A stretch of 17,006 nt of DNA from a virus (taxonomy: Duplodnaviria > Heunggongvirae > Uroviricota > Caudoviricetes). The notes under the pieces were generated by a model. It saw only the letters and a list, made by a program, of their open reading frames with translations, was not told the origin of the DNA and searched no databases. The stretch lies in IMG/VR virus record IMGVR_UViG_3300028591_008384; one strand, 5' to 3'. Shown here in pieces: positions 1,498 through 16,103 of the stretch (positions are counted from its first letter, which is position 1; the number at the start of each line of letters is the position of its first letter). Both the position numbers and the translations under genes were made by a program.

Positions 1498-1525
1498 TTG
1501 AAACATATAAAATTTTTGCTATATT
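1498..1525 (+). promoter_or_regulatory. Promoter with extended -10 TGCTATATT, probably leaderless, for the GT2 operon
   Basis: TTGAAA (1498-1503), 16 bp, TATATT (1520-1525). The ATG at 1533 follows after 7 nt with no SD. Confidence 0.65.
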
Positions 1526-1532
1526 GTCTGTT

Positions 1533-2426
1533 ATGAAGACATTATTAGTAATCGTTTCCAAGGATCAACAGCAATATGCCGATAATATGAACGCGGCAAT
1601 CGAAAAATTGACTGTGAAGCCAGATGGCGTCCTTGTAGTCCTCGAACGTCCCACTCCGGCAGAAATCAACGCGACAAAACGGGCATATACAAGCGAACTA
1701 GTGACCGTACTCATCTCGACCTCGCTTCCCGATTACGTCGGTCGTCCGCAGATGAACTACCATGTTCCCTATTTCTGCGCCGGCCATGCAAGAAACCTGG
1801 GTGTCAAGTTCGCCAATGAGCAAGGATATGACTCAATCGTATTCATTGACGGTGACTGCTACCCTGAACCGAACCTCATAAAGGCCCACAAGGAACTCCT
1901 GGATTCAGAAGAACCGGTTTTGACCGTCGGTAAGCGTTGTGAAGCCAAGTATGGATGGCACGACCAGCGCGAGAAGGACGGGAATTTTCCCATCCCCATC
2001 TTCAACAAGTCGGAGCGAGTTACCAGGGAAGCCTTCTTCGTGGACTCGGGTGTCCTCTGGACATGCAACATCGGCATCAACCAGAAAGCACTGGACTTGA
2101 TGACCTCCACAAACAAGACACTCTATGGCCGGGATGAACTGTGTTCTTCGGATTTCTGCGGCACTTGGGGCGGTGAAGATGGCTTCATCGGCCTCGAAGC
2201 CCTGTACCTGGATATTTCAGTTATCACAGTGTGCGCACCCGATTCCGGCGTTCGGCACAATGAGCACCCAAGACCATTGGACAAGTACGACCACGAAACC
2301 TTCGTCGCCTACCTCGAAGAAAAGCGCGAGGAACTGATGTACCTGATGAAGGCCAACGGCATTCCATGCCCACGGTATATTCCAAAGGACATCATCATCG
2401 GCAACCGAGACTGGATTACCAAATGA
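1533..2426 (+). CDS. Glycosyltransferase family 2 (GT-A fold)
   Basis: AGHARNLG, VFIDGDC (DxD), WTCNIGI and WGGED motifs. Start moved from the TTG at 1524, which overlaps the -10 box, to the ATG at 1533. Confidence 0.85.
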   Translation: MKTLLVIVSKDQQQYADNMNAAIEKLTVKPDGVLVVLERPTPAEINATKRAYTSELVTVLISTSLPDYVGRPQMNYHVPYFCAGHARNLGVKFANEQGYDSIVFIDGDCYPEPNLIKAHKELLDSEEPVLTVGKRCEAKYGWHDQREKDGNFPIPIFNKSERVTREAFFVDSGVLWTCNIGINQKALDLMTSTNKTLYGRDELCSSDFCGTWGGEDGFIGLEALYLDISVITVCAPDSGVRHNEHPRPLDKYDHETFVAYLEEKREELMYLMKANGIPCPRYIPKDIIIGNRDWITK

Positions 2427-2758
2427 AAGTAGCAAGAGCTTTATTCGAATCACGAAAGTTTCCGGAGCGCTTCCCTGAATTCAAGCGGTTCATGGCCTTC
2501 TGTGATGCAAATAAGCTGCGCATGTCATTCTATGATGAAACCCCGTATATTGGAATACGGGTATTCGATTCTTCAAATGAACCGATAACCCGATACAATC
2601 AATTCACGATACATTATAACACAATGGATAAGAAAATCTATGTGCTTGACTGTGAAGATTGGGATGAAGGAATGGGAATGCTCAACAAGGCACTTGGACT
2701 TTCCGAGCAGAAGAATGACGAAGACCTGATTTCTTCGCTCGGCTCAGCAATACTCTAA
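2423..2758 (+). CDS. Hypothetical protein, 111 aa, tandem paralog A
   Basis: ATGA overlap with the GT2 stop. Aligns without gaps to 2786..3121 at 80/111 identical residues by manual count. Confidence 0.85.
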   Translation: MKVARALFESRKFPERFPEFKRFMAFCDANKLRMSFYDETPYIGIRVFDSSNEPITRYNQFTIHYNTMDKKIYVLDCEDWDEGMGMLNKALGLSEQKNDEDLISSLGSAIL

Positions 2759-2785
2759 AATATTAACCTGAGACTGGATTACAAA

Positions 2786-3121
2786 ATGAGAGTAGCACGC
2801 GCCTTGTTCGAAGCGGAACATTACCATGAACGGTTTCCCGAATTCAAACGGTTCATGGCGTTCTGCGATGCCAATAAGCTGCAGATGGCATTTGCCATCG
2901 AACCGCCGTACATTGGAATACGTGTATTTAATTCCAACGATGAGGTGATAACCCGATATCGTCCATACACCATCTACTACTATACGATGGACAAGAAGGT
3001 CTACCTCATGGACTGCGCTAACTGGGACGAAGGAATGGGCATGTTCACCGAGGCGATCGGTCTCGACGAGCAGAAAAATGATGAGGATCTGATTTCTTCC
3101 CTCGGCTCAACAATACTCTAA
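2786..3121 (+). CDS. Hypothetical protein, 111 aa, tandem paralog B
   Basis: Same length as paralog A and about 72% identical to it. Both frames are intact and many differences are conservative. Confidence 0.85.
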   Translation: MRVARALFEAEHYHERFPEFKRFMAFCDANKLQMAFAIEPPYIGIRVFNSNDEVITRYRPYTIYYYTMDKKVYLMDCANWDEGMGMFTEAIGLDEQKNDEDLISSLGSTIL

Positions 3122-4170
3122 AAGATTATCCCGATAAAAGCAACGAGTAGTGCGACAATCGATATGGCCAGCGGCAAGACGCTGGTCTTTCTCTTACGCA
3201 TCGCATTCTCGTAAACCACGTTGCCGATTTGCGTATTCAATCCGTCCAGTCGTTCATTGACGGAATTGTACTTCAAGTTCACGGTTTCGAGCTCACTCCT
3301 GATACCTTCACCACAGAGATTGTTGGTATCGGCCATGCTGGAACGGAACTTATCCATCGTCTGTTCCAACTGGTTGACCTTTTCCTCGTTGCTGTTCAGT
3401 CGCTTCAATGCACCATTCTGCACGTCCAGTGCCCGCTGGAACAGTGACATCTGCACAAAATTTCTTAATGAATTCTTGACGTACTTGGTAACGTCCTTCA
3501 TGATTTCGTCCATGCCAATATCATCTTCGTAGTCATTGTCGAATGCTTCCAGATGGGAATTATCGACAACCAGGCCATCCTTGACAAAATCGAGAACCTT
3601 CGCAATGGCCGCTTCGTCTTCTTCCGAAGCCGGCTCGGATACATTGGAATCCATCTCGCCACATAGTCGTGCAAGTTCGGCATCCATGTCGCTTTCGGAA
3701 ATCATCAACTCGCCGGTCGGCTCGTAAATCATGATGTCATATCCGGCCTCGTTTTCCGACCTGGGTATGAAGCCATTAGTCTCGGCCAGACGCCATTTCC
3801 TGAATGTGAAATCGGCATTACGCTTATGCGGGGCCACGACAACCAGTCTGTGACAGTCGCATGTATCAAGAACGATGGGGAGAGTGCTTTCGGTGGCAAA
3901 AATCGTGCATGGCCAGGAATCCTCATCATGTGCAGCAGCTTCACAGAAAATTTTGAGAGTGCGCTCGTTCTTCATGGAAGCAATCTTAGGACAAACCACA
4001 CCAACATAGTTGGCAGCATCCTTCATCATAGAATCCATGAATATCCCAGCACTACCCGATACCTCGACCACCACCCTGGGGTCGCTTATCAGTTCCTGAC
4101 GATAAAAAATGTTCTTTTCAATGATATGTGCATCGCCGTCCACGGCGATTATAACGCTCAGATCCATCAT
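3118..4170 (-). CDS. Hypothetical protein: possible degenerate DHFR-like N-domain, acidic linker, coiled coil and C-terminal membrane anchor
   Basis: 350 aa. Hydrophobic end VLPLAISIVALLVAFIGIIF after basic MRKRK, and a heptad-like region near aa 250-320. The DHFR resemblance is weak. Confidence 0.75.
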   Translation of the reverse strand: MMDLSVIIAVDGDAHIIEKNIFYRQELISDPRVVVEVSGSAGIFMDSMMKDAANYVGVVCPKIASMKNERTLKIFCEAAAHDEDSWPCTIFATESTLPIVLDTCDCHRLVVVAPHKRNADFTFRKWRLAETNGFIPRSENEAGYDIMIYEPTGELMISESDMDAELARLCGEMDSNVSEPASEEDEAAIAKVLDFVKDGLVVDNSHLEAFDNDYEDDIGMDEIMKDVTKYVKNSLRNFVQMSLFQRALDVQNGALKRLNSNEEKVNQLEQTMDKFRSSMADTNNLCGEGIRSELETVNLKYNSVNERLDGLNTQIGNVVYENAMRKRKTSVLPLAISIVALLVAFIGIIF

Positions 4171-4179
4171 GCCATAAAA

Positions 4180-4611
4180 CTACTTCAAGTCACTCTTGAA
4201 CGTGACATAAGATAGCTTAAAGGCATCGACCTTGCCGTCCTTGTCAGGTACACCCTGCCCAACCGGTATAAACCGTATCTTGTCGAACCCACCGACCGTA
4301 TCTGCGGTGGCCATGAGTATCTTCCCGTACCTGGTATCGGGAACAGAAAATTCTACTTTAAGGATAGTCCCTTCAATGTTGGCCCCTACGGAACGGGCCA
4401 TCGCATGACCCTTCCATGGTTCATCCGGGCGAACACCCTTCTTCGTGCGCTCGGGCAAAGCCAAGTCCTCCACCGTGCAGCCATTGGCAGTAATCTGCGC
4501 ATAGGCCGCGAGAACGGCAGTCTCAGTAAAACGAATTCCGCCGATCGTATCGACAGCGGAATCCAGAATCTCGGCAGTGAACCGGGCAAGTTCCTTCTTC
4601 TTACTTGCCAT
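4180..4611 (-). CDS. Hypothetical protein resembling a catalytically dead T4 gp21-type prohead protease
   Basis: SD GGAGGGG. VEFSVPDTRYGKIL...FIPVGQG...DGKVDAFKLSYVTF follows the gp21-family pattern DTPxGKI...VSSRGxG...VxDFxLxxxD but lacks the catalytic Ser and His. Confidence 0.6.
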   Translation of the reverse strand: MASKKKELARFTAEILDSAVDTIGGIRFTETAVLAAYAQITANGCTVEDLALPERTKKGVRPDEPWKGHAMARSVGANIEGTILKVEFSVPDTRYGKILMATADTVGGFDKIRFIPVGQGVPDKDGKVDAFKLSYVTFKSDLK

Positions 4612-4894
4612 CGCCCCTCCACTTGACCAACAGGTCGTTCATGCCGACCCGTTCCATGGTGCGTTCGAGGGCAAGGCGCCTGCGGTTCCAGTAGTCGCTC
4701 ACGTTGCGGAGCAGGAGGCGAACCTCCGGTCCAATCTTGGAATCGTTGATTACGGCAGCAGCGTCGTCATACATTCGACGGCACAGCTTCCATTCCGCTT
4801 CCAACTTCGCCGTATCCCCCAACAGGATTTGCCATATTCTGGCCTGCTGGTCCGAGAACGACTTCTTGATTGCTTCGATCTTCTGTAAGTCCAT
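4601..4894 (-). CDS. Hypothetical helical protein, 97 aa
   Basis: SD GGAAGGA then ATG at 4894 (MDLQKIE...). Ends with an 11-nt overlap onto the next gene. Its 5' 128 nt overlap the nuclease ORF tail. Confidence 0.7.
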   Translation of the reverse strand: MDLQKIEAIKKSFSDQQARIWQILLGDTAKLEAEWKLCRRMYDDAAAVINDSKIGPEVRLLLRNVSDYWNRRRLALERTMERVGMNDLLVKWRGDGK

Positions 4895-5783
4895 ACTTAT
4901 TCCTTCCTTCCTCGGTGAGGAGTTCGGCTTCAAATGCCTTCGTGAGACGTTCCTTGTTTTCCTCCGCGCGGGCAATCAGGGCAGGGGCATTCTGCAACAG
5001 GTATGCCGCCTCGCTAGCCAGGTCCTTGCACTTGAACACCTTGTATGTCGGTTCAAGTTCACTGAACCAGCACAGGTACAGGTTCTTGATTGGAATTCCG
5101 GTCTCTTCTTCAAAGATGCGCTTGTAGCAGTGCAACTGCAACGAATACTCGGTGAGCTTGCACTTGTCCAGATGAGAGCATGGGGGTTCCAGGTTGAAGT
5201 CCGAACGGGTATCGAATTCGGAGTTGGTCTTCCAGTCCCAAATCTCGAAGCCGCCTGACTTCACGTTGTAGAAAATCTGGTCAATCATCCCACACACATT
5301 GTACTTCGGACTGCCGATTACAAGTTCGGAACGCACGCGGTGCATCTTGCCCTCGATGTCGTTGATGAACTGCCTAACCTTCGGTATGATGGCAGAATAC
5401 AACGGCTTGACAGGATCGCCCGGCATAATCGCCTGGAGACCGGGGTACTTCTTGAAATCCTTGGCAAATTCGTTGAACACGATATCCTTGGGATACGGCT
5501 GCACCTTGTTGGCCAGGGTGGTCTCGATGTACTTGTGCACTGCGGAACCCTTGGCACGGGAGATGAGGTTGTTCCGCTTCCACTGCAGGAGCAAAGCGTC
5601 GGCATTTACCTTCTGCTTCTTGGCGGACTGCAACGCCACCTTCTTCTCGATGAACGGCGGGGTCACCGAGCCGGTAACCTTGGTCACCGATACGGTCTTC
5701 TGCCCGTTCAGGGTGTAGCTGTGCCAATCATCATCAAAGGTGATTTTGTTGAACACGCTCGTCTTTTCAAAGAAATCAAACAT
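4767..5783 (-). CDS. PD-(D/E)xK nuclease, RecB-like phage exonuclease
   Basis: GSAVHKYIE, SELVI, CGMIDQI, EIWDWKT and the RecB-type QxxxY motif YSLQLHCY. Confidence 0.85.
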   Translation of the reverse strand: MFDFFEKTSVFNKITFDDDWHSYTLNGQKTVSVTKVTGSVTPPFIEKKVALQSAKKQKVNADALLLQWKRNNLISRAKGSAVHKYIETTLANKVQPYPKDIVFNEFAKDFKKYPGLQAIMPGDPVKPLYSAIIPKVRQFINDIEGKMHRVRSELVIGSPKYNVCGMIDQIFYNVKSGGFEIWDWKTNSEFDTRSDFNLEPPCSHLDKCKLTEYSLQLHCYKRIFEEETGIPIKNLYLCWFSELEPTYKVFKCKDLASEAAYLLQNAPALIARAEENKERLTKAFEAELLTEEGRNKYGLTEDRSNQEVVLGPAGQNMANPVGGYGEVGSGMEAVPSNV

Positions 5784-5790
5784 TGGAAAC

Positions 5791-6330
5791 CTATAATTCG
5801 GGGGTCCATTTCAGTAAGTGGATGTACCGGCAAGCCACCTTGTATCCTTCCGGCGCAACCGGGATTGCATTCTTGTACTTGGGTCCAAGAACGGTGTCCC
5901 AGCATTCTTCAAGCGCGTCCTTCAAGGTATCTTCGAGAGTGCAACTGATTACGGCAGCGGCAATTTCGTCGGAATCCATCTTGCGGCGCTTCTTCTTGGG
6001 CATGCCCGGTATGGGCTCTTCCTCGATGATGAAATCCGGATATTCCTCCTTCAGCCAGGCCTTCCACGCAGCCGCAACATCCTTCGGGAGGTTGTACGGG
6101 AACGGGCAGGTGTCCTTTCCATTCACGGCATCTTCGGCAACGGAAAGGTTCTTGATGAAAGTGGGAATGTATGGAATGATAATCGACGGGACGAGCACCC
6201 GGATACGGGCGGAATAGTGCCTGGTAGGCTGCGGCTGCGGCATGTCATACTTCAAGTCCTTCAAGATGTACTGGACCGTGAAGTCGGTGACCTTCACCGC
6301 GAGTTCTGTTTCATCGGCATCTAGTTTCAC
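5791..6330 (-). CDS. Hypothetical protein, 179 aa
   Basis: GTG start in a GTGA overlap with the upstream stop. Stop lies 7 nt before the nuclease ATG. Codon bias matches neighbouring genes. Confidence 0.75.
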   Translation of the reverse strand: MKLDADETELAVKVTDFTVQYILKDLKYDMPQPQPTRHYSARIRVLVPSIIIPYIPTFIKNLSVAEDAVNGKDTCPFPYNLPKDVAAAWKAWLKEEYPDFIIEEEPIPGMPKKKRRKMDSDEIAAAVISCTLEDTLKDALEECWDTVLGPKYKNAIPVAPEGYKVACRYIHLLKWTPEL

Positions 6331-7154
6331 GGTACGAGCTCCAACAGCTGCTTCTTGGTAATGTGCGACACCGTGAACATTGCATCGAAGGTCTGGATCA
6401 TGTGTTCCAGGCGTTCCATGTGCATCGGGTGCGTACTGAACCGGAGTTCTTCCTCGCTAATCTTGTGCGCCCAGTTAAGGCCGATGACCATCATTACAGC
6501 GGCAACGGCACCCTGCGCACCGAGGCAGCAGGATTGCAGTACGGCGGATGCCCAGGAGTCGGCCTGGCGTTCATCGTTGCGGTTGATGCTGCAATGCATG
6601 CCCTGTCCCTTGTAGTACAGGTGGCCAAGACAGATATGTCCGCATTCGTGGGCCATTACAGCCATGAGGATAGTCTTCGCGTACATGCGGGCGACTTCCT
6701 CCTGGACACTATCTTCTTCAAGATGGAACTTGTCCCACATCCTGAGCAGGAGGTCGGAACCAACGCAGCCCATTGTCGCCGCTTTGCGCATCCATTTGAG
6801 CATGGCACGGGCCTTGCGGGCGCTTCCGGTACGGTCGAGGATGGCAATCACCACTGCCAGTGCGCTTAGCCAGTCAAGCATGCCCTGCAGGATGACAATC
6901 CGGTACTTATGGGGAATGAAACCCTTGGCCTTTTCCGGATCCTTGGGAATCTGTGCCTTGATTTCCTCGTCACTCAGCCTAGATGCGAAGGCATTGACGG
7001 ACAGGCCATCCCGTATTTCGATACGGGTTTCCATGGCAAGACGGGCACAATGTTCCGTACGGAGCTGCACGAGCTCGGAAGAACATATTGCATTGAAGGC
7101 CGAACTCACATCGGCTTCGCTTAGATGATAGGCCGTTCCATTCCAATTCGACAT
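6327..7154 (-). CDS. Zinc metallopeptidase, M48-like or U49 (Lit-like), 275 aa
   Basis: MAHECGHICLGH (HExxH), NDERQADSWA (ExxAD) and FSTHPMHMERL (THP..R). Start set at ATG 7154 behind AAGGGGA. Confidence 0.8.
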   Translation of the reverse strand: MSNWNGTAYHLSEADVSSAFNAICSSELVQLRTEHCARLAMETRIEIRDGLSVNAFASRLSDEEIKAQIPKDPEKAKGFIPHKYRIVILQGMLDWLSALAVVIAILDRTGSARKARAMLKWMRKAATMGCVGSDLLLRMWDKFHLEEDSVQEEVARMYAKTILMAVMAHECGHICLGHLYYKGQGMHCSINRNDERQADSWASAVLQSCCLGAQGAVAAVMMVIGLNWAHKISEEELRFSTHPMHMERLEHMIQTFDAMFTVSHITKKQLLELVP

Positions 7155-7399
7155 GTGGCTATCCCCTTGTCGGTAAGGTACTTGTAGATGATCAGAGAAA
7201 GACCGGACTTTCCGCCTTCCTTGGCGAGCAGACGCTTTATATCGCGCATGCGGGATACCCGTAGCCAGGTCTTCCATTCGTCATCGGTCATGTCACCGCG
7301 TATTACATTGGTAATACCTGGTGTAGTTGATTTGAAATCCGGGACAACGACGTAACCGTCGCGGAAATCCTCGGGCAAACTTTCCTTTAATTCTGCCAT
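7121..7399 (-). CDS. Hypothetical protein, 92 aa
   Basis: SD AAAGGAAG and an upstream TGCTATATT promoter. Overlaps the peptidase start by 34 nt. Confidence 0.7.
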   Translation of the reverse strand: MAELKESLPEDFRDGYVVVPDFKSTTPGITNVIRGDMTDDEWKTWLRVSRMRDIKRLLAKEGGKSGLSLIIYKYLTDKGIATCRIGMERPII

Positions 7400-7428
7400 G
7401 GTAAAAACTTCCTTTGACTATATTGGAA

Positions 7429-7437
7429 AATATAGCA
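7429..7437 (-). promoter_or_regulatory. Extended -10 promoter TGCTATATT
   Basis: Exact motif in an AT-rich spacer about 30 nt upstream of ATG 7399. No good -35 at 17 bp. Confidence 0.6.
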
Positions 7438-7465
7438 TTATTTTTATCAAAATTATTATAAAATG

Positions 7466-7765
7466 CTAAAAACTTGCACCGTTGTCCGAATTATTGAACC
7501 AGAAATTGGGTGCATCCATGCCCTCGCTGCCGGAAATGTCGCCCCTGGCGCCACTGGAGAACGGGGAATAACGGGGACCGTTGTGCGGCGTGTCGAAACC
7601 ATCCGGGATAAACCCGTTGGCGATGTAGCCACGGGTGCCGTCCGCGTACAGGACGATGCGTCCGGTCTCGTCAGGGGTGTCGATGTAATCGACTATCTTG
7701 GCGACCCCGTACCTTTCTTCTGGCGGGGGACACGGAAATGGCGGATGGAAGGGCGGTCTCTGCAT
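7466..7765 (-). CDS. Hypothetical protein, 99 aa, Pro-rich N-terminus
   Basis: Strong C/G third-position bias on the minus strand (GAC ACC CCT GAC GAG ACC GGA CGC ATC GTC CTG TAC). No SD; may be the distal part of a frameshifted gene. Confidence 0.6.
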   Translation of the reverse strand: MQRPPFHPPFPCPPPEERYGVAKIVDYIDTPDETGRIVLYADGTRGYIANGFIPDGFDTPHNGPRYSPFSSGARGDISGSEGMDAPNFWFNNSDNGASF

Positions 7766-7860
7766 GTCTGAAGTTTATAGGCTTGAAGGATCGCCCTGGC
7801 CAGTCTGGCACCAATCAGGACCAGATTGAGGATATGTGCAACTTTCTTAATTCTACTCAT
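7693..7860 (-). CDS. Small leaderless ORF, 55 aa, amphipathic N-terminus
   Basis: ATG 7860 coincides with the predicted +1 of the 7867-7895 promoter. Begins MSRIKKVAHILNLVLIGARLARAIL. Confidence 0.55.
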   Translation of the reverse strand: MSRIKKVAHILNLVLIGARLARAILQAYKLQTCRDRPSIRHFRVPRQKKGTGSPR

Positions 7861-7866
7861 GCACAT

Positions 7867-7895
7867 AATGTAGCATTTTGGCTTAGGTATGGCAA
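7867..7895 (-). promoter_or_regulatory. Promoter TTGCCA-17-TACATT with TGn extension, leaderless
   Basis: TTGCCA at 7895-7890 (inside the last codons of the aroE-like gene), TACATT at 7872-7867, then 6 nt, then ATG. Confidence 0.8.
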
Positions 7896-8653
7896 CTTTC
7901 ACTTCTGATAGCCTTTCCCAGACGTTTGAGCTGTTCCGCCCGGTCGGATGGGCACCAGCGGTCGATGACCTTCGCGCACAGGCCCATCTTGAACCTGGTA
8001 TCCACCGGCAGGTCAATCAGCAACTGTCCGGGTTTCGGCTCAAATCCGGGGATAAGACCACACATCGGGATTGGGGTGGCGTTCACGATGATATCCATCG
8101 GTTCGAATGCGACCGCCTCGTAGGTAGTGCCCTCGACAGCGCATGTGACCTTTCCTACCTGTTCAGCGATGGAGTCAATGGCAAGCTCGATATCGACTGC
8201 GGTATCGGACTCGCCACGGCTTACCAGGTTCAGGTAGATGCACACTGGGTAGAGGGCCATTGCGGCAGCCTTCGCCATGCGCCCGGTGCCGAGGACGGCA
8301 GCCATCACGTCAGACTTCCCGAACAGGAACGGCATAATGGTATCGACCAGCATATCGTAGGCCGAATCGTTACCGCACACTACCCCAATCTCCTTGTTCC
8401 AGAAGATCGTGTCGGCAAATCCGGTAGGCGTCTTGGTGAAGCCTTGCCACCCTGCAGCATCCGCAGCCAATTTGGGTTCCGGCAGGTACAGCCCGCCCAC
8501 GTACCTATGTTCAACCAGGGACAAGAAATCCCATATATGCTTATGGTCAGTCAGTCCAACGGGATGAACATGGTCATAGGACAACTGCTTGAAGAAGGTG
8601 GTATCGGGGCCATCTTCGGACAGGTTGAGGGTCATGTACAGCGGTTCCCGCAT
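7883..8653 (-). CDS. Divergent shikimate dehydrogenase-like (AroE family) oxidoreductase
   Basis: Rossmann AAVLGTGRMAKAAAMAL, DIIVNATPIPM, LYLPEPK (cf. NVTxPxK), FADTI...CGNDS (cf. AVNT...GYNTD). SD GGAG. Confidence 0.7.
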   Translation of the reverse strand: MREPLYMTLNLSEDGPDTTFFKQLSYDHVHPVGLTDHKHIWDFLSLVEHRYVGGLYLPEPKLAADAAGWQGFTKTPTGFADTIFWNKEIGVVCGNDSAYDMLVDTIMPFLFGKSDVMAAVLGTGRMAKAAAMALYPVCIYLNLVSRGESDTAVDIELAIDSIAEQVGKVTCAVEGTTYEAVAFEPMDIIVNATPIPMCGLIPGFEPKPGQLLIDLPVDTRFKMGLCAKVIDRWCPSDRAEQLKRLGKAIRSESCHT

Positions 8654-8661
8654 GGTTTCTC

Positions 8662-9408
8662 CTACGGGTGCGGAATACGGATGATTTCACGCTTGAACTG
8701 GTTACGACCAGCCATCTCGGTGATTTTCTTGGCAACTTCCGGTTCAAGAGGCTTGTTGGCGAGGTAGTCCTCAATCTGGGCATAGGTGATGCCGAGGGAT
8801 TCCTCGTCAGTCTTTCCGGTGAGGCCGTCGCTAGGAGCCTTGAAAACGAGACGGTCGGGAAGGCCCATGAACTTGCCGAGTTCGCACACTTCGCGCTTGG
8901 TGAGAATTGCGAGCGGAGCAAAGTCTCCCGCCAGGTCTCCCCAGAGGGTGCAGTAGCCGACAATGGATTCACAACGGTTGCCAGTGCAGCAAACACGCCC
9001 GTTGTTCGGCTGTCCATTTTCATCCACGGACTGGGCGACCGCATAGAGAGTAGCCATACGCAGACGGGGACGGAGGTTCAGCTTGGCCTGTTCCGAGTTG
9101 GCGAATCCCGGAATAATCTTGGCCATGTGTGCATTGGTTTCGCCGATGTCAATCTCGTAGGTACGGGTGATACCGGCAGCAGCCGCGGCATCGTATGCAT
9201 CCTGGATATCAGGCTGGTAGCCGCAAGGCATGAACACACCAATCACGTTTTCGGGGCCGAGGGCTTCCGTCAAGAACCTGGCAGCCACGGTGGAATCAGC
9301 ACCGCCGGAGATGCCCAGGATGGCGGTCTTGCCACCCGTCGTCTTGAAATAGTCCCTGATCCACCCAACGATATGGTCGTGAACCTTAATCAATTCTTCT
9401 TCTTGCAT
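8662..9408 (-). CDS. nadE: NH3-dependent NAD+ synthetase
   Basis: LGISGGADSTV PP-loop, NLRPRLRMATLYAVA, TGNRCE.VGY.TLWGD, PLAILTKREV and KAPSDGL.GKTDEESLGITY. No glutaminase domain. Confidence 0.93.
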   Translation of the reverse strand: MQEEELIKVHDHIVGWIRDYFKTTGGKTAILGISGGADSTVAARFLTEALGPENVIGVFMPCGYQPDIQDAYDAAAAAGITRTYEIDIGETNAHMAKIIPGFANSEQAKLNLRPRLRMATLYAVAQSVDENGQPNNGRVCCTGNRCESIVGYCTLWGDLAGDFAPLAILTKREVCELGKFMGLPDRLVFKAPSDGLTGKTDEESLGITYAQIEDYLANKPLEPEVAKKITEMAGRNQFKREIIRIPHP

Positions 9409-9433
9409 ATTAACCTCTTGAAGGGTTTTTCAA

Positions 9434-9442
9434 AATATAGTA
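9434..9442 (-). promoter_or_regulatory. Probable -10 element TACTATATT for the nadE operon
   Basis: One mismatch from the TGCTATATT motif. Predicts a 19-nt leader containing SD AAGAGGT. Confidence 0.5.
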
Positions 9443-9488
9443 AAAAATACTAGTTTCTACCTGTAAAAATCAAACAAAGGACCAAATT

Positions 9489-9857
9489 ATGGTAACATTG
9501 GACGAATTGAAGCAAATTTCCGACATGACCCCGCTTGAACGCAGCTTCTACGTGAAGCTCGAAGAGGCCAAGAAGGTCGCACTTACGACCAACCAGCGCA
9601 GCATCGAACTCAATGTCATGAAGCGCAGCTTCTTTACCGACCAGCTCGCCCACTTCGTGAAGGGGCCAATCAATCCCGATGAACTGTACCAGAGCCAGAT
9701 CGACCTGGTGAACAAGTTCAAGGATGCCGGGTTCACCATGACCGAGGAAGAACCGTCCCCGGTAATCATCGCATCGGTGAACGAAGACCCAAAAGACTCG
9801 GCACAGCGCGAGTTCGAACAAAAATATCTTGAAAAGAAAGTCATCGCAGCATGGTAA
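9489..9857 (+). CDS. Hypothetical protein, 122 aa
   Basis: SD AAAGGA, typical codon bias, followed by a terminator hairpin. Confidence 0.8.
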   Translation: MVTLDELKQISDMTPLERSFYVKLEEAKKVALTTNQRSIELNVMKRSFFTDQLAHFVKGPINPDELYQSQIDLVNKFKDAGFTMTEEEPSPVIIASVNEDPKDSAQREFEQKYLEKKVIAAW

Positions 9858-9863
9858 GCAAAT

Positions 9864-9887
9864 GAGGCCGGTTCAACCGGCCTCTTT
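9864..9887 (+). terminator. Terminator hairpin between convergent genes, possibly bidirectional
   Basis: GAGGCCGGT (9864-9872) / ACCGGCCTC (9876-9884) perfect 9-bp stem followed by TTT. Confidence 0.75.
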
Positions 9888-9889
9888 CG

Positions 9890-11551
9890 CTAATCCTCAT
9901 CGCCATCGACACAGAAGTTCTTCCGGGCAACTTCCCTGGATTGCTTCAACGTCTCGATACCGACCTTGAACTCGTCGTAGTTGTAGGTCTCCTTGGCATC
10001 ATGCTTGACCTTCATCATGACCGTGAGGTTCTTGATGTCGGCAACGGACGCGCTCAATTCAACCAGTTCGGCTCCAACCTGTTCCAGCACATCATCGGCA
10101 ATAGAATAGCCGTTCTTCTTGCCATAGCGGCGGAGCAGTTCCTTGGTCATCCCGATATCCGGGGTGTTGATAGGCACCACTTCGTCAATGCGTTCCGGAC
10201 GGCCCATGATGGTGCTGTTCACGTTCTTCGGGTTGTTCACCGTGGAGAACAGGATAATAGGCACATCGGACTTGTTGAGGGCCGCGAAGAATTCCAGGAA
10301 CTCGCCCACATTGTCGCTACCCTTGCGCTTGATGTCAAGCTGGTCAAGGTCATCGAACAGGATGGCACACTTGGATGTCATCTTTGTAGTGAGGAGCACC
10401 TTTCCGAGCATTACGCCCATCATGCGGCGATCGAGGGAGCAACGGACGAGAGTGTAGCCGTCATTGCACAGTTCAGTCATCAGGTGCTCACACATGCCGG
10501 TCTTACCGGTACCCGGAGGACCGACAAGCGCATAGGAACGCTTCATGTTCAGGCTGGACACGCGCTTACATTCGGCACGGAGCCTGGTCATTTCGGCAGA
10601 CTGGACCCAGCAATCATTGCTGTCGCCGGTGAAGAAACTGTCGTTGTTGGCAACCATAATCTTGCTCTGGTCCACATAGAAGTGGTACCTATGGTAGTCA
10701 AGACGACGATAGATTGCCATGATGGCATGCTCGATTGTGCGGTATTCCGATTCGGCATAGCCCTTCAAGTATGCGGCATGCTCAATAAGCGTCTTGGAGA
10801 TGAACGAGGCACCGGTAGAAGCCTGGGCGGATTCCATCGACATGCGTTCGGCGATGGGAATGTCGCTGTCGCGCTCGTTATCCATGGAAATAGCGTAATA
10901 GACATCCTCAACCAGTTCGCCATGCCTGTCATAGCACTTGCAGTGGAGAAGCGTGGTGATATTGTCCTTCGTGATGATGGTGCCGTCACTGTTCATAATC
11001 GGATCTTCGCCAATGAACCCGACACGCTCGATGGTCACCTTGGACACGAAGTCGTCATCGGACGGCTGGTAGGTAATCGCATCGTGGTCCTTCACCTTGG
11101 AGAGGAGGTAGATAAGGATGTCGGAAAGCGGCAGTACACCGGAAGCCGTCGTGGAATAGTTGTCGCACAGCGGGATGTCCACCTTGAAGCGGTTGGCAAT
11201 TTCCTTCCAGAACATGATGTCGCCACGGTTCTCGACGGAAGTGCTCGGGATGATGTTCATGTAGATGTCATCGAGCACAGAGTAGAGGGCGATGGCGTTA
11301 CGGGCAGAGGAGACTGCCTGCACCCCGAAGGAGTCCTTCGGCTTGTTTTCCCAGAGGGTAAGGAGCAATTCCGTACCGGTAGTGGCCAACGGAAGCAGCT
11401 TCTTCGCATTGATATGCGTTATCTGGTTAAAGAGTTTCTTGTAGTCTATCCCGTCAGGGGTGATGAAATCCGTCGAAATCCTAGGAATGTCCTTGGAAAT
11501 CGAGGTCAGGATGTCCCAAAATTTTCCGCGTGGAGATGCGTCGTTTGACAT
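9890..11551 (-). CDS. AAA+ ATPase (classic AAA clade) with a long unrecognised N-terminal region
   Basis: Walker A GPPGTGKT, Walker B AILFDDLD, sensor STVNNP and second region of homology IMGRPERIDEV, all in the last ~220 aa. Confidence 0.85.
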   Translation of the reverse strand: MSNDASPRGKFWDILTSISKDIPRISTDFITPDGIDYKKLFNQITHINAKKLLPLATTGTELLLTLWENKPKDSFGVQAVSSARNAIALYSVLDDIYMNIIPSTSVENRGDIMFWKEIANRFKVDIPLCDNYSTTASGVLPLSDILIYLLSKVKDHDAITYQPSDDDFVSKVTIERVGFIGEDPIMNSDGTIITKDNITTLLHCKCYDRHGELVEDVYYAISMDNERDSDIPIAERMSMESAQASTGASFISKTLIEHAAYLKGYAESEYRTIEHAIMAIYRRLDYHRYHFYVDQSKIMVANNDSFFTGDSNDCWVQSAEMTRLRAECKRVSSLNMKRSYALVGPPGTGKTGMCEHLMTELCNDGYTLVRCSLDRRMMGVMLGKVLLTTKMTSKCAILFDDLDQLDIKRKGSDNVGEFLEFFAALNKSDVPIILFSTVNNPKNVNSTIMGRPERIDEVVPINTPDIGMTKELLRRYGKKNGYSIADDVLEQVGAELVELSASVADIKNLTVMMKVKHDAKETYNYDEFKVGIETLKQSREVARKNFCVDGDED

Positions 11552-11575
11552 TTGTATTCCGTTCTTGTTGGTTGA

Positions 11576-11770
11576 TTAAGAGTTTTCGAGTTCCTTTCCC
11601 GGATTGCACTGCAAAACGGGCTCCCGTAGAGGTACCCTCAGGCTGAGGGGAATATCACGGTCATCGTTTTCGGGGAACTTGGGGGGTTTGAATCGGGAGG
11701 CCATGCGGGGCAGTTCGTATCCGGCAATGAGGCCATACATGATAAGTTGAATGCACTTTGAAACAGTCAT
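11576..11770 (-). CDS. Small leaderless ORF, 64 aa
   Basis: ATG 11770 is the predicted +1 of the TGCTATATT promoter. Ends 24 nt before the AAA gene. Confidence 0.6.
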   Translation of the reverse strand: MTVSKCIQLIMYGLIAGYELPRMASRFKPPKFPENDDRDIPLSLRVPLREPVLQCNPGKELENS

Positions 11771-11776
11771 ATCCGA

Positions 11777-11809
11777 AATATAGCAAAAATCTTACAAGTT
11801 GCGTGGCAA
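11777..11809 (-). promoter_or_regulatory. Extended -10 promoter TGCTATATT, leaderless, with TTGCCA displaced to 21 bp
   Basis: TATATT at 11782-11777 and TTGCCA at 11809-11804. The spacer closely resembles that of the 16075-16103 promoter plus 4 nt. Confidence 0.65.
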
Positions 11810-11849
11810 TTTGACAAAAATATCGTATTTTTTGAAATAGTTTTGCATT

Positions 11850-12125
11850 ATGATAGTAAGGATTCAAAACGACCCCTATGTAAACGTAATCGAGCTCGCC
11901 TGGATATTCATCAAGCGCGAGTTCTTCACGACCATGGAGTTCCTGCAATTCTATGACCAGGAGGACCGGTCGTGGAACAGCAGGGCAGTATGGTGGTACA
12001 TCATCGCGCTTGCTATTATGTCGGTGTTCCTGTGCGGGTTTACCCACTTCATCCCGGCAATCCTGTTCTCGGCAATAGTTACCGGAACATTCACCCGCTT
12101 CCTGCAGGTATCAAAATGGAGATAA
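11850..12125 (+). CDS. Small membrane protein with about 2 transmembrane helices
   Basis: Hydrophobic stretch AVWWYIIALAIMSVFLCGFTHFIPAILFSAIVTGTF. Confidence 0.65.
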   Translation: MIVRIQNDPYVNVIELAWIFIKREFFTTMEFLQFYDQEDRSWNSRAVWWYIIALAIMSVFLCGFTHFIPAILFSAIVTGTFTRFLQVSKWR

Positions 12126-12406
12126 GGGACCCGGAAAAACTGGTGGAGTACATTACCACCATGCACCAAAATCCAAACGTCCTGGTACGAATCCAGGACG
12201 ATGGCACTATCGACTTGATGTTCAGTGAGATAAAGCGTTTGGAACCTGCAATAGAGAGCGTGAAATGTCCCTATTGTGACATCCCAATCCGGGAACATCA
12301 GCCACAGTTGGAAGATAATATCCGCGGCATGTATCTACGCTGTCCCGAATGCAACCAGAGGTTCTTCATCCACATGTTCGTTCAATTCGGCGGAACACCT
12401 GTCTAA
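12116..12406 (+). CDS. Zinc-ribbon protein, 96 aa
   Basis: CPYC...CPEC pair. Start set at ATG 12116 behind CAGGT, overlapping the previous stop by 10 nt. Confidence 0.7.
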   Translation: MEIRDPEKLVEYITTMHQNPNVLVRIQDDGTIDLMFSEIKRLEPAIESVKCPYCDIPIREHQPQLEDNIRGMYLRCPECNQRFFIHMFVQFGGTPV

Positions 12407-13134
12407 AGATAACTCCGTAAAGTTCCATTTACAAACTGCCGGCACTTGCACCAGAACTGGTAGAGCTCTCGGTCAACCTGGGGTATGTCCTTCTTCTCGC
12501 ACTTGTTCAACGCTTCTTCGCGGTACATCATCGTGACCACGGCGAGACGAGTGTATTTCAGGAACTTCTTGAACCGCTTCACACCCTTCTCGTAGCGGTT
12601 GGGAATTCTTGCCTTGCGAACCACGTCGCGGTGTCGGCACCCCTTGTTCGAACAGAACAACTGGTAATATCCCCAATCGGCAAGATCCATGAGCTGCGTG
12701 GACCGGATGCAGACCCTGGTTTCCAGCGGGGAACCCCAGGAAGGAAGATATACATTGGTACCGATTGACAGGCGCCAAAGGCAGGTGAGGTAATACAACG
12801 GACGACCGGCTGCCCGGACATACTCAGCAATCTTGTATTTCTTGTGGCCGGTCCTGAAATACACCGTATATATCTCGGCAACGGCAGCCACCCTGTATTC
12901 CCGCAAATTCGTAACACGGTCGATACAGATATTCTCCTCGTCAATATTGATGCCGATTGACGCGAGAAGCCTCTCTTCCGAACTGAATGCCGGCATGTGG
13001 TAGCAATCGGGTGTCTTTCGCCAACCCCAGTCCTTCGTGAGTTCCGGCATGTTGATTACGACCCGCTTATCTCCCCCGTCATTGACGAAAGAGATAAGTT
13101 TCGCGCTGTGGTCCCAGAGTTCTCTCGTTTCCAT
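12403..13134 (-). CDS. Hypothetical protein, 243 aa
   Basis: TAATG coupling to the upstream glycosyltransferase. No family recognised. Confidence 0.75.
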   Translation of the reverse strand: METRELWDHSAKLISFVNDGGDKRVVINMPELTKDWGWRKTPDCYHMPAFSSEERLLASIGINIDEENICIDRVTNLREYRVAAVAEIYTVYFRTGHKKYKIAEYVRAAGRPLYYLTCLWRLSIGTNVYLPSWGSPLETRVCIRSTQLMDLADWGYYQLFCSNKGCRHRDVVRKARIPNRYEKGVKRFKKFLKYTRLAVVTMMYREEALNKCEKKDIPQVDRELYQFWCKCRQFVNGTLRSYL

Positions 13135-13886
13135 TATCGCCTCATGAAGTTATAGACAGCATTGTCCCCGAGCTTCTTCCACATGTCGTTCTTGAGGATG
13201 TTGTCTATGGTTTCCGGGAGGTACTTCAACGGACATTCGGTAATACAGCCGTCAAGGTAGTTCCTGGCACTCTGCTCGGAAACGACGCATGCCCCGTTGA
13301 TTACCGGGTAGAACATGCGAACCTGTTCCTGACGGTTGTTGTTATCGTATGCGTGGATGTTCAGGATAATCTTGGAGCGACCGATCCATTTGGCCAAGTT
13401 TTCACCGGAAATGCCCATGGTGATTGTCGTTGCCCACTTGTTGCATCCGGCATTGGCAATCTGAGTAAGCAGCTTGGACCTACGCTCGGTCAGGTAGCCA
13501 TAGAACAGGACATCAACATCCTTTTCCATGTTCGGAACGTCGCGCAGGGTGCTTGCGTAGCGCATCGGGTGGAATGACGCCTGGATACCCTTCTTGGCAA
13601 GCCACTCGATGTTGTCCAGGTCATAGTCCCAGATTTCATCGGCGCCTTCAAGCCAATCGAACACATGCTTGTTGGCATACTTGCACCCGTTGTACATCTG
13701 TTCCAACTGGTACACGACGAGCTTCTTGTTGGGATACTTCTTGCGCATCCCATCCAGGGTGCACCGGGTGTCCACATGGCCGAGGATGAACACGGTATCG
13801 GCAAACTCGGGCTTGCCACCGCACTGTTCCTTCAACATGCGGGCCACTTCGGTAAAAACAAATCTGTTAGTTGCTTCAATAATCAT
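13134..13886 (-). CDS. GT-B fold glycosyltransferase, CgeB/Glyco_trans_1_2-like
   Basis: DVDVLFYGYLTERR...RSKIILNIH...EQVRMFYPVINGACVVSE pattern. ATGA coupling to the IF3 stop. Confidence 0.75.
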   Translation of the reverse strand: MIIEATNRFVFTEVARMLKEQCGGKPEFADTVFILGHVDTRCTLDGMRKKYPNKKLVVYQLEQMYNGCKYANKHVFDWLEGADEIWDYDLDNIEWLAKKGIQASFHPMRYASTLRDVPNMEKDVDVLFYGYLTERRSKLLTQIANAGCNKWATTITMGISGENLAKWIGRSKIILNIHAYDNNNRQEQVRMFYPVINGACVVSEQSARNYLDGCITECPLKYLPETIDNILKNDMWKKLGDNAVYNFMRR

Positions 13887-14563
13887 TTCTTAGGCATGCA
13901 GGAGATTGTGAAACTGTTTCCGGCGCGACTAATCTTCGCGATAGCGCCATGCTTCAATACGTTACCCATTTCTTCCTTGGTACGCTCGATGACATCATCG
14001 CAATGGGACACCTTGCGACCGGGGAAACGGATGCAGAAGTTGACCGGATGGCCCTGCTCCATGAACTCGTCACCCTGGTTCAGGATGCGTTCACGGTCGG
14101 CATCGCCACCGTTGCACGGGAAACGGAGTTCCTTGATTTCGGTAGCCTTGGCTGCCGCACGGTTCTTCTTTTCCATTTCGCGCTTCTTTTTCTTCTGCTC
14201 ATATTCGTACTTGCCGCGGTCGCCAAGTCTGGCCACCTGCGGATCCTGGTTGGGAGCCACGACAATGATGTCAAGACCACGGTCATCGGCAATCTTGCGG
14301 GCTTCCTCACTGGAAATGACACCGAACTGCTCGCCGTTCTCGCCCATCAGTCGCACGGTAGCCGTGGTGATTCCATCCTTCGGCGGGTTGCCTAGGCGGT
14401 ACACCGGCGGGTTCGCTGCCGGGTTGACGCAGACCAGGGGCAGGTCGCGGTCATTCGCGATTGCCTTGGCCTTGCCGGGGCTCATGACCCCCATAGGCTT
14501 GCCGTCCTCGCCAATCAGCATGACGGAAGAAGCAGCGATGTAGAAATTGTTCTTGAATCCCAT
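13883..14563 (-). CDS. infC: Translation initiation factor IF3 homolog with a duplicated N-terminal domain
   Basis: TVRLMGENGEQFGVISSEEARKIADDRGLDIIVVAPNQDPQVARLGDRGKYEY (IF3N), Lys-rich linker, IKELRF...FMEQG...IRFPGRK...MPKK (IF3C). An extra IF3N copy occupies aa 9-58. Confidence 0.92.
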   Translation of the reverse strand: MGFKNNFYIAASSVMLIGEDGKPMGVMSPGKAKAIANDRDLPLVCVNPAANPPVYRLGNPPKDGITTATVRLMGENGEQFGVISSEEARKIADDRGLDIIVVAPNQDPQVARLGDRGKYEYEQKKKKREMEKKNRAAAKATEIKELRFPCNGGDADRERILNQGDEFMEQGHPVNFCIRFPGRKVSHCDDVIERTKEEMGNVLKHGAIAKISRAGNSFTISCMPKK

Positions 14564-14564
14564 A

Positions 14565-14705
14565 TTATTTCTTTACCTCGTAGAGTTTGAAATCCGGTTT
14601 TGATGAAATCCTGTCATAGCAGGAATTAAATAAAATCTTTTCCCACCGTTGGGCAATTTCCTTGTCCGACGGGCGGGTGAATGTTAAGAGTTTCTGATAT
14701 TCCAT
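14565..14705 (-). CDS. Leaderless 46-aa ORF directly upstream of infC
   Basis: ATG 14705 is the predicted +1 of the promoter. The stop TAA lies 1 nt before the infC ATG. The ORF-track start at 14801 would cross a terminator and a promoter. Confidence 0.65.
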   Translation of the reverse strand: MEYQKLLTFTRPSDKEIAQRWEKILFNSCYDRISSKPDFKLYEVKK

Positions 14706-14711
14706 GTCGGA

Positions 14712-14740
14712 AATGTAGCATTTTGTATTACAGCTGGCAA
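14712..14740 (-). promoter_or_regulatory. Promoter TTGCCA-17-TACATT with TGn extension, leaderless
   Basis: TTGCCA GCTGTAATACAAAATGC TACATT TCCGAC ATG. Confidence 0.85.
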
Positions 14741-14741
14741 C

Positions 14742-14773
14742 AAAAACTACCGGGACCGAAGTCCCGGCAGTTT
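14742..14773 (-). terminator. Rho-independent terminator with a cUUCGg loop
   Basis: Minus strand ACTGCCGGGAC-TTCG-GTCCCGGTAGT-TTTT (one G.U pair), 28 nt after the ParB-like stop. Confidence 0.9.
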
Positions 14774-15620: not shown

Positions 15621-15689
15621 GATTTTGTTCCTTTTAGGTTTGTTAACACAAGCATTCCCACACGGGACATTGTTTTCAGTAAAACGTTC

Positions 15690-15718
15690 TTGACAATCTA
15701 TACCATATATTCTATATT
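15690..15718 (+). promoter_or_regulatory. Near-consensus sigma70 promoter with no downstream sense gene
   Basis: TTGACA (15690-15695), 17 bp, TATATT (15713-15718). Confidence 0.6.
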
Positions 15719-15792
15719 GATACTTAGGTAGCGTCACGATCACTATACATCGTTCCAACATCCTTATATTAGGTGGACAATACTTTAAGATA

Positions 15793-15821
15793 AATGTAGC
15801 ATGTTTTCAACAAATTGCCAA
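15793..15821 (-). promoter_or_regulatory. Promoter TTGGCA-17-TACATT with TGn extension
   Basis: TTGGCA at 15821-15816 and TACATT at 15798-15793. Predicts a 166-nt leader before ATG 15620. Confidence 0.75.
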
Positions 15822-15834
15822 CATGTTACCAAAA

Positions 15835-16056
15835 TTATACACTTTCCGTGTTTACTTCCGGTTCAGAAGTTACCTCCGGGGTCTTGACTTTCGTCTTCTT
15901 TTTCGGGGTAAGTTCAGGATCGTCAAAGAATACCATATAGTATGACTGGTATCCCGTCGTGACATGAGTAATCTGCACTTCGCTCGGCTTCAAGCCGGCC
16001 TTGTTGAGGAATTTATCGACATCCGCAACTCTATCGCATTTCGCATGAGTAATCAT
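15835..16056 (-). CDS. Hypothetical protein, 73 aa
   Basis: SD AAGAGGT and its own promoter immediately upstream. Low-complexity K/E/P/T tail. Confidence 0.75.
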   Translation of the reverse strand: MITHAKCDRVADVDKFLNKAGLKPSEVQITHVTTGYQSYYMVFFDDPELTPKKKTKVKTPEVTSEPEVNTESV

Positions 16057-16074
16057 ATTTTACCTCTTTTCCGG

Positions 16075-16103
16075 AATGTAGCAAAATCATAACAAGTTGG
16101 CAA
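16075..16103 (-). promoter_or_regulatory. Promoter TTGCCA-17-TACATT with TGn extension
   Basis: TTGCCA directly follows the helicase TAG stop. The predicted 12-nt leader AAGAGGTAAAAT begins with the SD. Confidence 0.85.

Follow-up and report, generated by a model that had tools for sequence, protein, structure and literature searches.

We analysed a 17,006-nt stretch of DNA (the window) from IMG/VR virus record IMGVR_UViG_3300028591_008384, which is a portion of an uncultured rumen phage of roughly 200 to 250 kb. We found that a promoter word, TGCTAYATT, stands directly ahead of the start codons of several of its genes, with the ATG 6 or 7 nt away. As judged from the sequence, leaderless mRNAs are very likely made from these promoters. 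The layout is a genuine clade-wide feature, but it is a known type of gene organisation. The same geometry serves as the in silico definition of bacterial leaderless genes in Zheng et al. 2011 (PMC3160421), and −10 promoters abutting open reading frames (ORFs) have been shown experimentally to work in Deinococcus-Thermus (Zhong et al. 2025, PMC12340547).

The TAYATT hexamer is part of the longer word TGCTAYATT, an extended −10 element with TG at −15/−14 and TANNNT at −12 to −7, as in sigma-70-type promoters. Its usual partner is TTGCCA 17 nt upstream. The window holds seven exact copies of the word. With one mismatch allowed there are 11 matches, compared with 4.9 ± 2.1 in shuffled sequences, and none of 200 shuffles reached 11. 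An ATG follows at 6 to 7 nt in four of the seven exact copies, and the chance of at least four such copies is p = 1.4e-4. An earlier note on this DNA had named these four sites, with a spacer of 6 nt at the starts 7860, 11770 and 14705 and of 7 nt at 1533, and its coordinates and spacings proved exact. It had also claimed that none of the four has a Shine-Dalgarno (SD) sequence. Indeed, the cores GGAG, GAGG, AGGA and AAGG are all absent upstream, and there is no room for a 5′ untranslated region. A −35 element (TTGCCA, TTGAAA or TTGGCA) lies at 16 to 17 nt for the promoters at 1517, 7875, 14720, 15801 and 16083. It is absent at 11785 and 7437, which extended −10 promoters tolerate. A terminator-like GC hairpin (14767-14750) and a T-run lie directly upstream of the promoter at 14740, so that terminator, promoter and ATG follow one another consecutively.

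Table 1. Promoter-linked starts in the window and the gene for the initiation factor 3 (IF3) homologue
Feature	Position	Strand	Promoter elements	Spacer or leader	Gene
Leaderless-type site, exact motif	1498..1535	+	TTGAAA-16 nt-TG-c-TATATT; TGCTATATT 1517-1525	7-nt spacer gtctgtt	ATG 1533; 297-aa GT2-like glycosyltransferase 1533-2426
Leaderless-type site, exact motif	7858..7895	-	TTGCCA 7895-7890, 17 nt, TACATT 7872-7867, TG 7875-7874; TGCTACATT 7875-7867	spacer atgtgc	ATG 7860; 55-aa ORF 7693-7860
Leaderless-type site, exact motif	11768..11785	-	extended −10 only; TGCTATATT 11785-11777	6-nt spacer tcggat	ATG 11770; 64-aa ORF 11576-11770, then 553-aa AAA ATPase gene 9890-11551
Leaderless-type site, exact motif	14703..14767	-	hairpin, TTGCCA 14740-14735, 17 nt, TACATT 14717-14712; TGCTACATT 14720-14712	6-nt spacer tccgac	ATG 14705; 46-aa ORF 14565-14705
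Leadered type	7397..7437	-	TGCTATATT 7437-7429	29-nt leader with aaggaag	ATG 7399; 92-aa ORF
Leadered type	15759..15821	-	TTGGCA-17 nt-TACATT; motif 15801-15793	leader of at least 31 nt	ParB-like 319-aa gene 14802-15761
Leadered type	16054..16103	-	TTGCCA-17 nt-TACATT; motif 16083-16075	18-nt leader with SD aagagg	ATG 16056; 73-aa ORF
Leadered type	9406..9442	-	one-mismatch variant TACTATATT 9442-9434	25-nt leader with SD aagagg	NAD synthase gene 8662-9408
IF3 homologue	13883..14563	-			second cistron of the unit that opens at 14705; IF3_N in two stretches, IF3_C below threshold

Two IMG/VR contigs, of 55 kb and 203 kb, are 79 to 96% identical to the window in DNA. The earlier note had proposed a histogram of motif-to-ATG distances, and we built it on the relatives. 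In the 203-kb contig (G001), the motif has 44 exact matches, whereas a reversed-pattern control has 2. In 22 of the 44, an ATG stands at exactly 6 nt and opens an ORF of 46 to 562 aa, where about 1 is expected (p = 1e-24, from a background ATG frequency of 0.023 per position, with every motif site inspected). A further two copies place the ATG at 7 nt, and another opens its ORF with GTG at 6 nt, which brings the leaderless type to 25/44. The histogram has a spike at 6 nt and is not flat.

The full signature (−35, extended −10, five bases, pyrimidine, ATG) is present in only nine of 2.9 million viral contigs, five of them 198 to 253 kb long, and this rarity points to one small clade. In four other genomes, G002 to G005, an ATG stands at exactly 6 nt at 10/27, 8/25, 10/20 and 1/10 sites, respectively (29/82 in all; p = 1e-22), so that the spike recurs in three of the four. 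Over the 3-kb stretch that was compared, G002, G004 and G005 have no detectable DNA similarity to the window. The histogram of these four genomes has a minor second bump, made of eight sites with an ATG 1 nt after TAYATT. It is not seen in G001 and is probably an effect of the AT-rich sequence that follows the hexamer.

The position of the motif places the predicted transcription start on the start codon. If the hexamer occupies −12 to −7, a 6-nt spacer fills −6 to −1 and +1 is the A of the ATG. Bacterial RNA polymerase prefers a pyrimidine at −1 and a purine at +1 at its modal start, 7 bases past the −10 hexamer. The base at −1 is C or T at 28/28 sites in the window and G001 and at 29/29 in the other genomes (57/57 in total), and this invariant pyrimidine matches the Y(−1)R(+1) preference of the polymerase. 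Start codons of the leaderless type are ATG in 4/4 cases in the window and in 24/25 in G001, the remaining one being GTG, which fits the expectation for 5′-terminal start codons.

Comparison of orthologues gave the same picture. The letters of the spacer differ and its length stays constant: tcggat, tcgggt and tcgaat at 11770 in three genomes, each 6 nt; tccgac or tccacc at 14705; atgtgc at 7860, replaced by aggtgc in the counterpart L002; and gtctgtt against gaatatc at the glycosyltransferase gene, where G001 keeps the 7-nt spacing. The leadered copies, by contrast, vary in length. At the 16083 motif the first ATG is 18 nt away in the window, 19 nt in L001 and 15 nt in L002, where the gene's own start is 29 nt downstream; the leader of the ParB-like gene is 31, 33 or 35 nt in the relatives. 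Coding-type substitutions begin at codon 2, right after the ATG. The first 12 codons of the glycosyltransferase orthologue in G001 have only synonymous differences. In the 55-aa ORF, the N-terminal 25 codons are conserved and show synonymous differences, for example AGA to CGT (both Arg), the N terminus of the 64-aa ORF is conserved, and the 46-aa ORF has an identical length in three genomes and a coding substitution pattern. Changes after the ATG are synonymous or conservative, and the three short ORFs are real coding sequence over at least their N-terminal 25 or so codons.

These data bear on the simplest alternative, which is that AT-rich hexamers fall close to these ATGs by chance and that the true starts are elsewhere. 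Three of the four ORFs in the window are very short (46 to 64 aa), and the ORF listing extends two of the short ones to upstream TTG codons, as such an explanation would have it. However, those extensions run through the promoter itself, the substitutions are of the coding type from codon 2 onward, the spacing is conserved across diverged genomes, and the spacing statistics are far from chance both in G001 and in the four further genomes. Chance or mis-called starts thus have next to no probability and are effectively refuted. Taken together, the 6-nt spike, the pyrimidine at −1 and the fixed spacer length give good in silico support to the earlier claim that the four genes are leaderless.

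We also considered whether the motif might work in the RNA. In that case, the genes would be translated from read-through transcripts, and UGCUAYAUU would be an AU-rich, SD-independent ribosome-binding element held at a fixed distance. In a variant of this explanation, the polymerase starts a few bases away and makes very short leaders instead of none. Hosts of the Fibrobacterota-Chlorobiota-Bacteroidota (FCB) group do have AU-rich non-SD initiation regions, according to the available parts of PMC3160421 and PMC3155529. Several leaderless-type sites directly follow a gene on the same strand (7875 follows a 256-aa gene), so read-through is possible, and a phage-modified polymerase could shift the start. 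However, in G001 the motif also lies 15 nt ahead of tRNA-Arg(CCG) and 29 nt ahead of tRNA-Glu(CTC), which is positional evidence, and 14 to 40 nt ahead of genes with their own SD. It has the −35 partner at 17 nt, follows the terminator at 14767-14750, and occurs in back-to-back divergent pairs in G001. These properties point to a transcription signal rather than a translation signal. The invariant pyrimidine at −1 is likewise a feature of RNA polymerase start sites and not of ribosome binding. We therefore regard the RNA-level explanation and its variant, taken together, as quite improbable, and favour initiation of transcription at the ATG.

Several points weigh against this overall interpretation. 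The start is predicted from promoter geometry of the E. coli type. G001 encodes two sigma-70-family proteins of about 270 to 280 aa (5188-5802(+) and 159858-160457(−)), so that a holoenzyme modified by the phage, with another start position, is conceivable. No −35 element stands at a proper distance from the promoter at 11785, and the clade member G005 has the 6-nt spacing at just one of its ten sites. Finally, the host assignment given below rests on binned contigs and composition, and the short matches to the host lineage are not in arrays of clustered regularly interspaced short palindromic repeats (CRISPR).

We propose the following model for the expression of these genes. TG-n-TAYATT, usually with TTGCCA 17 nt upstream, is the main recognisable promoter class of the phage and is most likely read by the RNA polymerase holoenzyme of the host. 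More than half of the copies are placed so that the A of a gene's ATG falls on the seventh position past the hexamer, always with a pyrimidine before it. Transcription from that A would yield an mRNA with a 5′-terminal AUG and zero leader. Ribosomes would bind the terminal AUG directly, presumably either as 70S particles or as 30S subunits with IF2 and fMet-tRNA. The downstream cistrons of a leaderless unit would use an SD, an A-rich leader or coupling. In this scheme, the motif with its spacing, conservation and statistics, the coding character of the ORFs and the signature in the host lineage are observed, and we infer the start site, the sigma factor and the mode of ribosome loading.

The same promoter also serves genes with leaders. 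The earlier note had stated that it precedes SD-led genes, and three exact copies in the window do have leaders that bear SD-like cores (Table 1). The 29-nt leader of the 7437 promoter is also found in L002. A 41-nt stretch over the annotated start of the ParB-like gene (15726-15766) is 93% identical to a contig of a Fibrobacter metagenome-assembled genome (MAG) (L154 1528-1568), in which the ATG is ATA. This stretch may be non-coding, either a binding site or an RNA element, and the ParB-like gene may in truth start downstream of its annotated ATG. The motif sites near RNA genes in G001 are at 168194(−), 202103(−) and 135180(+) (see also L035 3349-3709). The motif also precedes tRNA-Pro and a phage transfer-messenger RNA, whose tag is ANNAYACRMAA, at a distance of about 420 nt. 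A different sequence, TATAAACT, occurs at 7765-7779 on the minus strand of the window, 6 nt before the ATG at 7765 of a 99-aa ORF and within the 55-aa leaderless ORF, and is conserved in G001 (30262). We considered it as a "late" motif class, but its 8 to 9 copies in 203 kb are not significant against about 6 expected.

The earlier note had gone further and sorted the phage genes into two initiation classes. Distinct modes do exist. Among the first cistrons of G001, 25 are leaderless and about 13 are SD-led behind the same promoter. In addition, a 40-kb single-strand block at 162 to 201 kb (L186 1-19901, minus strand; L188 around 11207) holds about 31 genes that all have a strong, almost invariant SD leader, AAGGAGAC. 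However, an SD and a promoter are both lacking at many internal cistrons, which raises the number of modes from two to at least three.

Ahead of each gene of the block lies a structured, conserved module about 60 nt long, in which ACCGTGTCCC pairs with GGGGG-NNN-ATCGT around an inner GC hairpin. The module is followed by an A-rich segment of 25 to 40 nt that ends in AAGGAGAC, 4 to 9 nt before the ATG; a reversed-pattern control gave 0. Elsewhere, the exact module pattern has three copies in G002, none in G003 or G005, and one atypical match without an SD in G004. The module could be a repeated intercistronic RNA structure for processing or stabilisation, or a second promoter class. We considered the block as a late or structural module, but PHROGs gave no structural hits and the products are mostly ORFans.

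The leaderless first cistrons encode mostly recognisable enzymes: a PIF1/Dda-like helicase, an NAD-dependent ligase, a CCA/poly(A) polymerase family enzyme and an RlaP-like nucleotidyltransferase. HU, radical SAM proteins and glycosyltransferases are also among them. Ten leadered first genes have no Pfam match. Overall, function does not cleanly separate leaderless from leadered first genes.

The phage IF3 gene of the window has its own SD (GAGG) 12 to 16 nt upstream, within the end of the 46-aa ORF. The IF3 proteins of the window, G001 and G003 have tandem IF3_N domains. IF3_N was found in G001 and G003 and was absent from G002 (99% complete), G004 and G005. In G003, the IF3 gene (L185 1195-1874) has a terminator, a TATAAT box and a GGAGAG leader ahead of it and lacks an upstream leaderless ORF.

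The earlier note had proposed that the leaderless and SD-led classes respond oppositely to IF3. On this view the phage IF3 would be the switch; made early, for example, it could turn off leaderless early mRNAs and favour strongly SD-led ones. Excess IF3 does inhibit model leaderless mRNAs in E. coli, with an effect that depends on concentration and on the mRNA (review PMC9031893). The phage gene is the second cistron of a leaderless unit in the window, and the roughly 31 genes of the block in G001 form a sharply distinct second class. Thermus thermophilus phage phiYS40 also pairs leaderless middle and late mRNAs with a rise in host IF2 and a fall in IF3, according to a review (PMC3594737). However, G002 and G004 retain the 6-nt layout despite having no IF3, and leaderless starts and IF3 do not consistently go together across the relatives. 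The more distant G003 gene has its own promoter-like box and SD leader. Adding IF3 is the opposite direction to phiYS40, and on the E. coli data it would disfavour leaderless mRNAs (PMC9031893). The likely host carries leaderless-type genes alongside a normal IF3, which must therefore tolerate them. Nor did we find a functional or demonstrable temporal split between the classes, or an initiator tRNA in the phage tRNA array. The sole tRNA(CAT) of the array in G001 was considered as a booster of leaderless initiation, but it has a paired U1-A72 and lacks the three anticodon-stem G-C pairs, and thus is not of the initiator type. The opposite response of two classes is an extrapolation from the E. 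coli work; it is unproven and weakened, and we consider a switch of this kind unlikely, although none of the results refutes an effect of IF3.

A related idea, to which we give slightly less credence still, is that the phage IF3 variant, with its tandem N domains and divergent C domain, may retune start discrimination by the host ribosome. It would set the 5′-AUG mRNAs from TGCTAYATT against the class of about 31 genes with a hairpin and AAGGAGAC, at different times or rates, and the 46-aa ORF would provide feedback. If this were true, a virus-encoded initiation factor would be a translational class switch.

The window has a G+C content of 51%. Its phage-type genes lie on the plus strand before about 3.1 kb and on the minus strand from there to the end. 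Their products include a Dda-like helicase, a phrog_298 exonuclease, an M48 peptidase, a ParB-like phrog_5931 protein, an AAA ATPase, an NAD synthase, a GT2-like glycosyltransferase and the IF3 homologue. We found no DNA match to the window among 50,697 phage records, and all protein matches to cultured phages were below 40% identity and gave no host signal.

The host is probably a member of the Fibrobacteraceae, which is the best inference from phage-like contigs binned into MAGs and from composition. A comparison of the window DNA with 121 Fibrobacteraceae genomes gave phage-specific gene matches in five MAGs, the strongest to the exonuclease gene (534 nt at 70% identity, E = 6e-61). By tblastx, the strongest contig has several window genes in the same order, and phage loci on three other contigs are matched by the proteins of more than one gene. 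Among Lachnospiraceae, Oscillospiraceae and Treponemataceae, with 121 genomes from each family, phage-specific matches numbered 0/363. The matches in these control families were of the cellular type (NadE, IF3 and the AAA Walker A region), plus a few isolated ones no longer than 45 nt, at best about 1e-8. In 401 Bacteroidota genomes there were no matches at E ≤ 1e-5.

The contigs L160 to L164 (4 to 96 kb; from Fibrobacteraceae MAGs G101, G125, G054 and G090) carry homologues of phage genes, with 75% amino acid identity in the exonuclease. The TGCTAYATT promoter was not found on L160, the contig with several window genes in the same order. L160 to L164 seem to stem from phages more distantly related to the clade or from prophage-like DNA.

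Other potential indications of a host were set aside. A promoter of the Bacteroidota type (TTTG at −33, TAnnTTTG at −7) does not fit, because only about one-third of the spacers begin with TG, the −35 is TTGCCA, and the leadered genes have strong SDs. CRISPR spacers from Fibrobacter were considered as evidence, but the near-exact matches of 27 to 31 nt lie outside repeat arrays, and one is inside a 769-aa chromosomal ORF. This is a 27-nt exact identity (30/31) between window positions 3671-3697, in a 350-aa phage ORF, and L155 1505-1531 in Fibrobacter; its flanks have no protein similarity and it is outside any CRISPR array. Other short Fibrobacter matches fall in the AAA Walker A region of a window gene and have similar counterparts in the control families.

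We then looked for the signature in cellular genomes. Among 185,579 prokaryote species genomes, one for each species, there were 81 scattered single hits, and no host lineage stood out. About half of the hits open ORFs of at least 60 aa, which is consistent with ordinary leaderless genes in many phyla. For Fibrobacter we sampled contig C1 of genome G024 as 20 evenly spaced 20-kb pieces (L165-L184), or 400 kb of 3.1 Mb; the G+C content of the chromosome is 49%. In this sample, TANNNT boxes before the 5′-most ATG of long ORFs peak at a spacer of 6 nt, where 25 were counted over a background of 7.3 (p = 2e-7), and there is a shoulder at 7 nt. A pyrimidine occupies −1 at 31/38 sites, compared with 52% overall. 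The boxes are TAAATT, TATTTT or TATATT at 6 to 7 nt; a T-run comes before them, and a TTG −35 is usually lacking. The 6- to 7-nt signature is less frequent in the Fibrobacter chromosome than in the phage.

This result suggests that Fibrobacter itself uses leaderless initiation. SD usage in the class Fibrobacteria is 37% (PMC10783764), and our literature search found no report of leaderless genes in Fibrobacterota. Because the same −10-to-ATG geometry is present on a chromosome of the host lineage, the phage appears to exploit and amplify an initiation route already used by its likely host, as do mycobacteriophages and Thermus phages. The exact phage consensus was considered as a common Fibrobacter promoter, but each genome has just a single copy, which stands ahead of a conserved unit resembling a small RNA. 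Three Fibrobacter species share this unit of about 130 nt, which has its own terminator (L083 1429-1600, L112 1249-1420 and L149 2580-2747). Its promoter, TTGCCA-14 nt-TGCTATATT, is identical to the phage consensus. It contains only a 22-codon ORF, has no Rfam match and is probably a small RNA without a name.

These findings have practical consequences. Gene callers that expect an SD can be expected to mis-set starts or overlook small first cistrons in this clade, and the rule of promoter plus 6 nt fixes about 25 starts per genome to the base. The clade contains members with and without a phage IF3 and with the same leaderless promoters, and thus offers a natural comparison for the effects of IF3 on leaderless and SD-led mRNAs. 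The work also points to Fibrobacteraceae, which are major cellulose degraders of the rumen, as hosts.

The reuse of one strong promoter has parallels in other phages. Phage T4 has many near-consensus sigma-70 early promoters with extended −10 features, which serve early and tRNA genes and are read by the host polymerase. The early mRNAs of T4 differ in that they have leaders with SD sequences. The jumbo phages phiKZ (PMC8244752) and AR9 (PMC5312081), whose start sites have been mapped, resemble the present phage in genome size class and in the reuse of a consensus promoter. However, they encode multisubunit polymerases and use non-sigma-70 promoters, phiKZ has no leaderless transcripts among 65 start sites (PMC8244752), and AR9 leaders are 26 to 491 nt (PMC5312081). 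Unlike these two, a jumbo phage of the present clade can express a large share of its replication and nucleic-acid genes from leaderless mRNAs, if the predicted starts are correct.

The classic single case of a leaderless phage message is the lambda cI mRNA from pRM, which has a 5′-terminal AUG from a promoter that abuts the start codon and is translated by 70S ribosomes (PMC10491246). In contrast to cI and other isolated regulatory genes, the leaderless form is here the predicted majority mode of one promoter class. The closest systemic phage case is phiYS40 (Sevostyanova et al. 2007). According to the review that describes it (PMC3594737), it is a large phage in which a whole transcript class is leaderless, as predicted here for 25 of 44 promoter copies in G001. 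Most of its middle and late mRNAs have no leader, host IF2 goes up and IF3 goes down, the IF2/IF3 balance is implicated in favouring leaderless mRNAs, and the host phylum itself uses them. The present phage differs from phiYS40 in that its leaderless class consists of replication and nucleic-acid enzymes behind a sigma-70-like promoter, and in that some clade members add an IF3 gene of their own.

Among cellular genes, the closest likeness is to the "TA-led" genes of Actinobacteria and Deinococcus-Thermus (PMC12340547 and PMC3160421; for mycobacteria, PMC4633059), which have no SD and a TANNNT box whose first T precedes the start codon by about 12 bp. In these genes too, the first cistron of a unit is leaderless, and many of the proteins are small. 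Fibrobacterota is not among the groups listed for TA-led genes in the available part of PMC3160421. Unlike TA-led genes, those of the phage stand behind one near-invariant, strong extended −10 promoter that is reused dozens of times. The phage layout is thus a clear and quantitatively strong example of a known leaderless organisation, in an uncultured jumbo-phage clade that probably infects Fibrobacteraceae.

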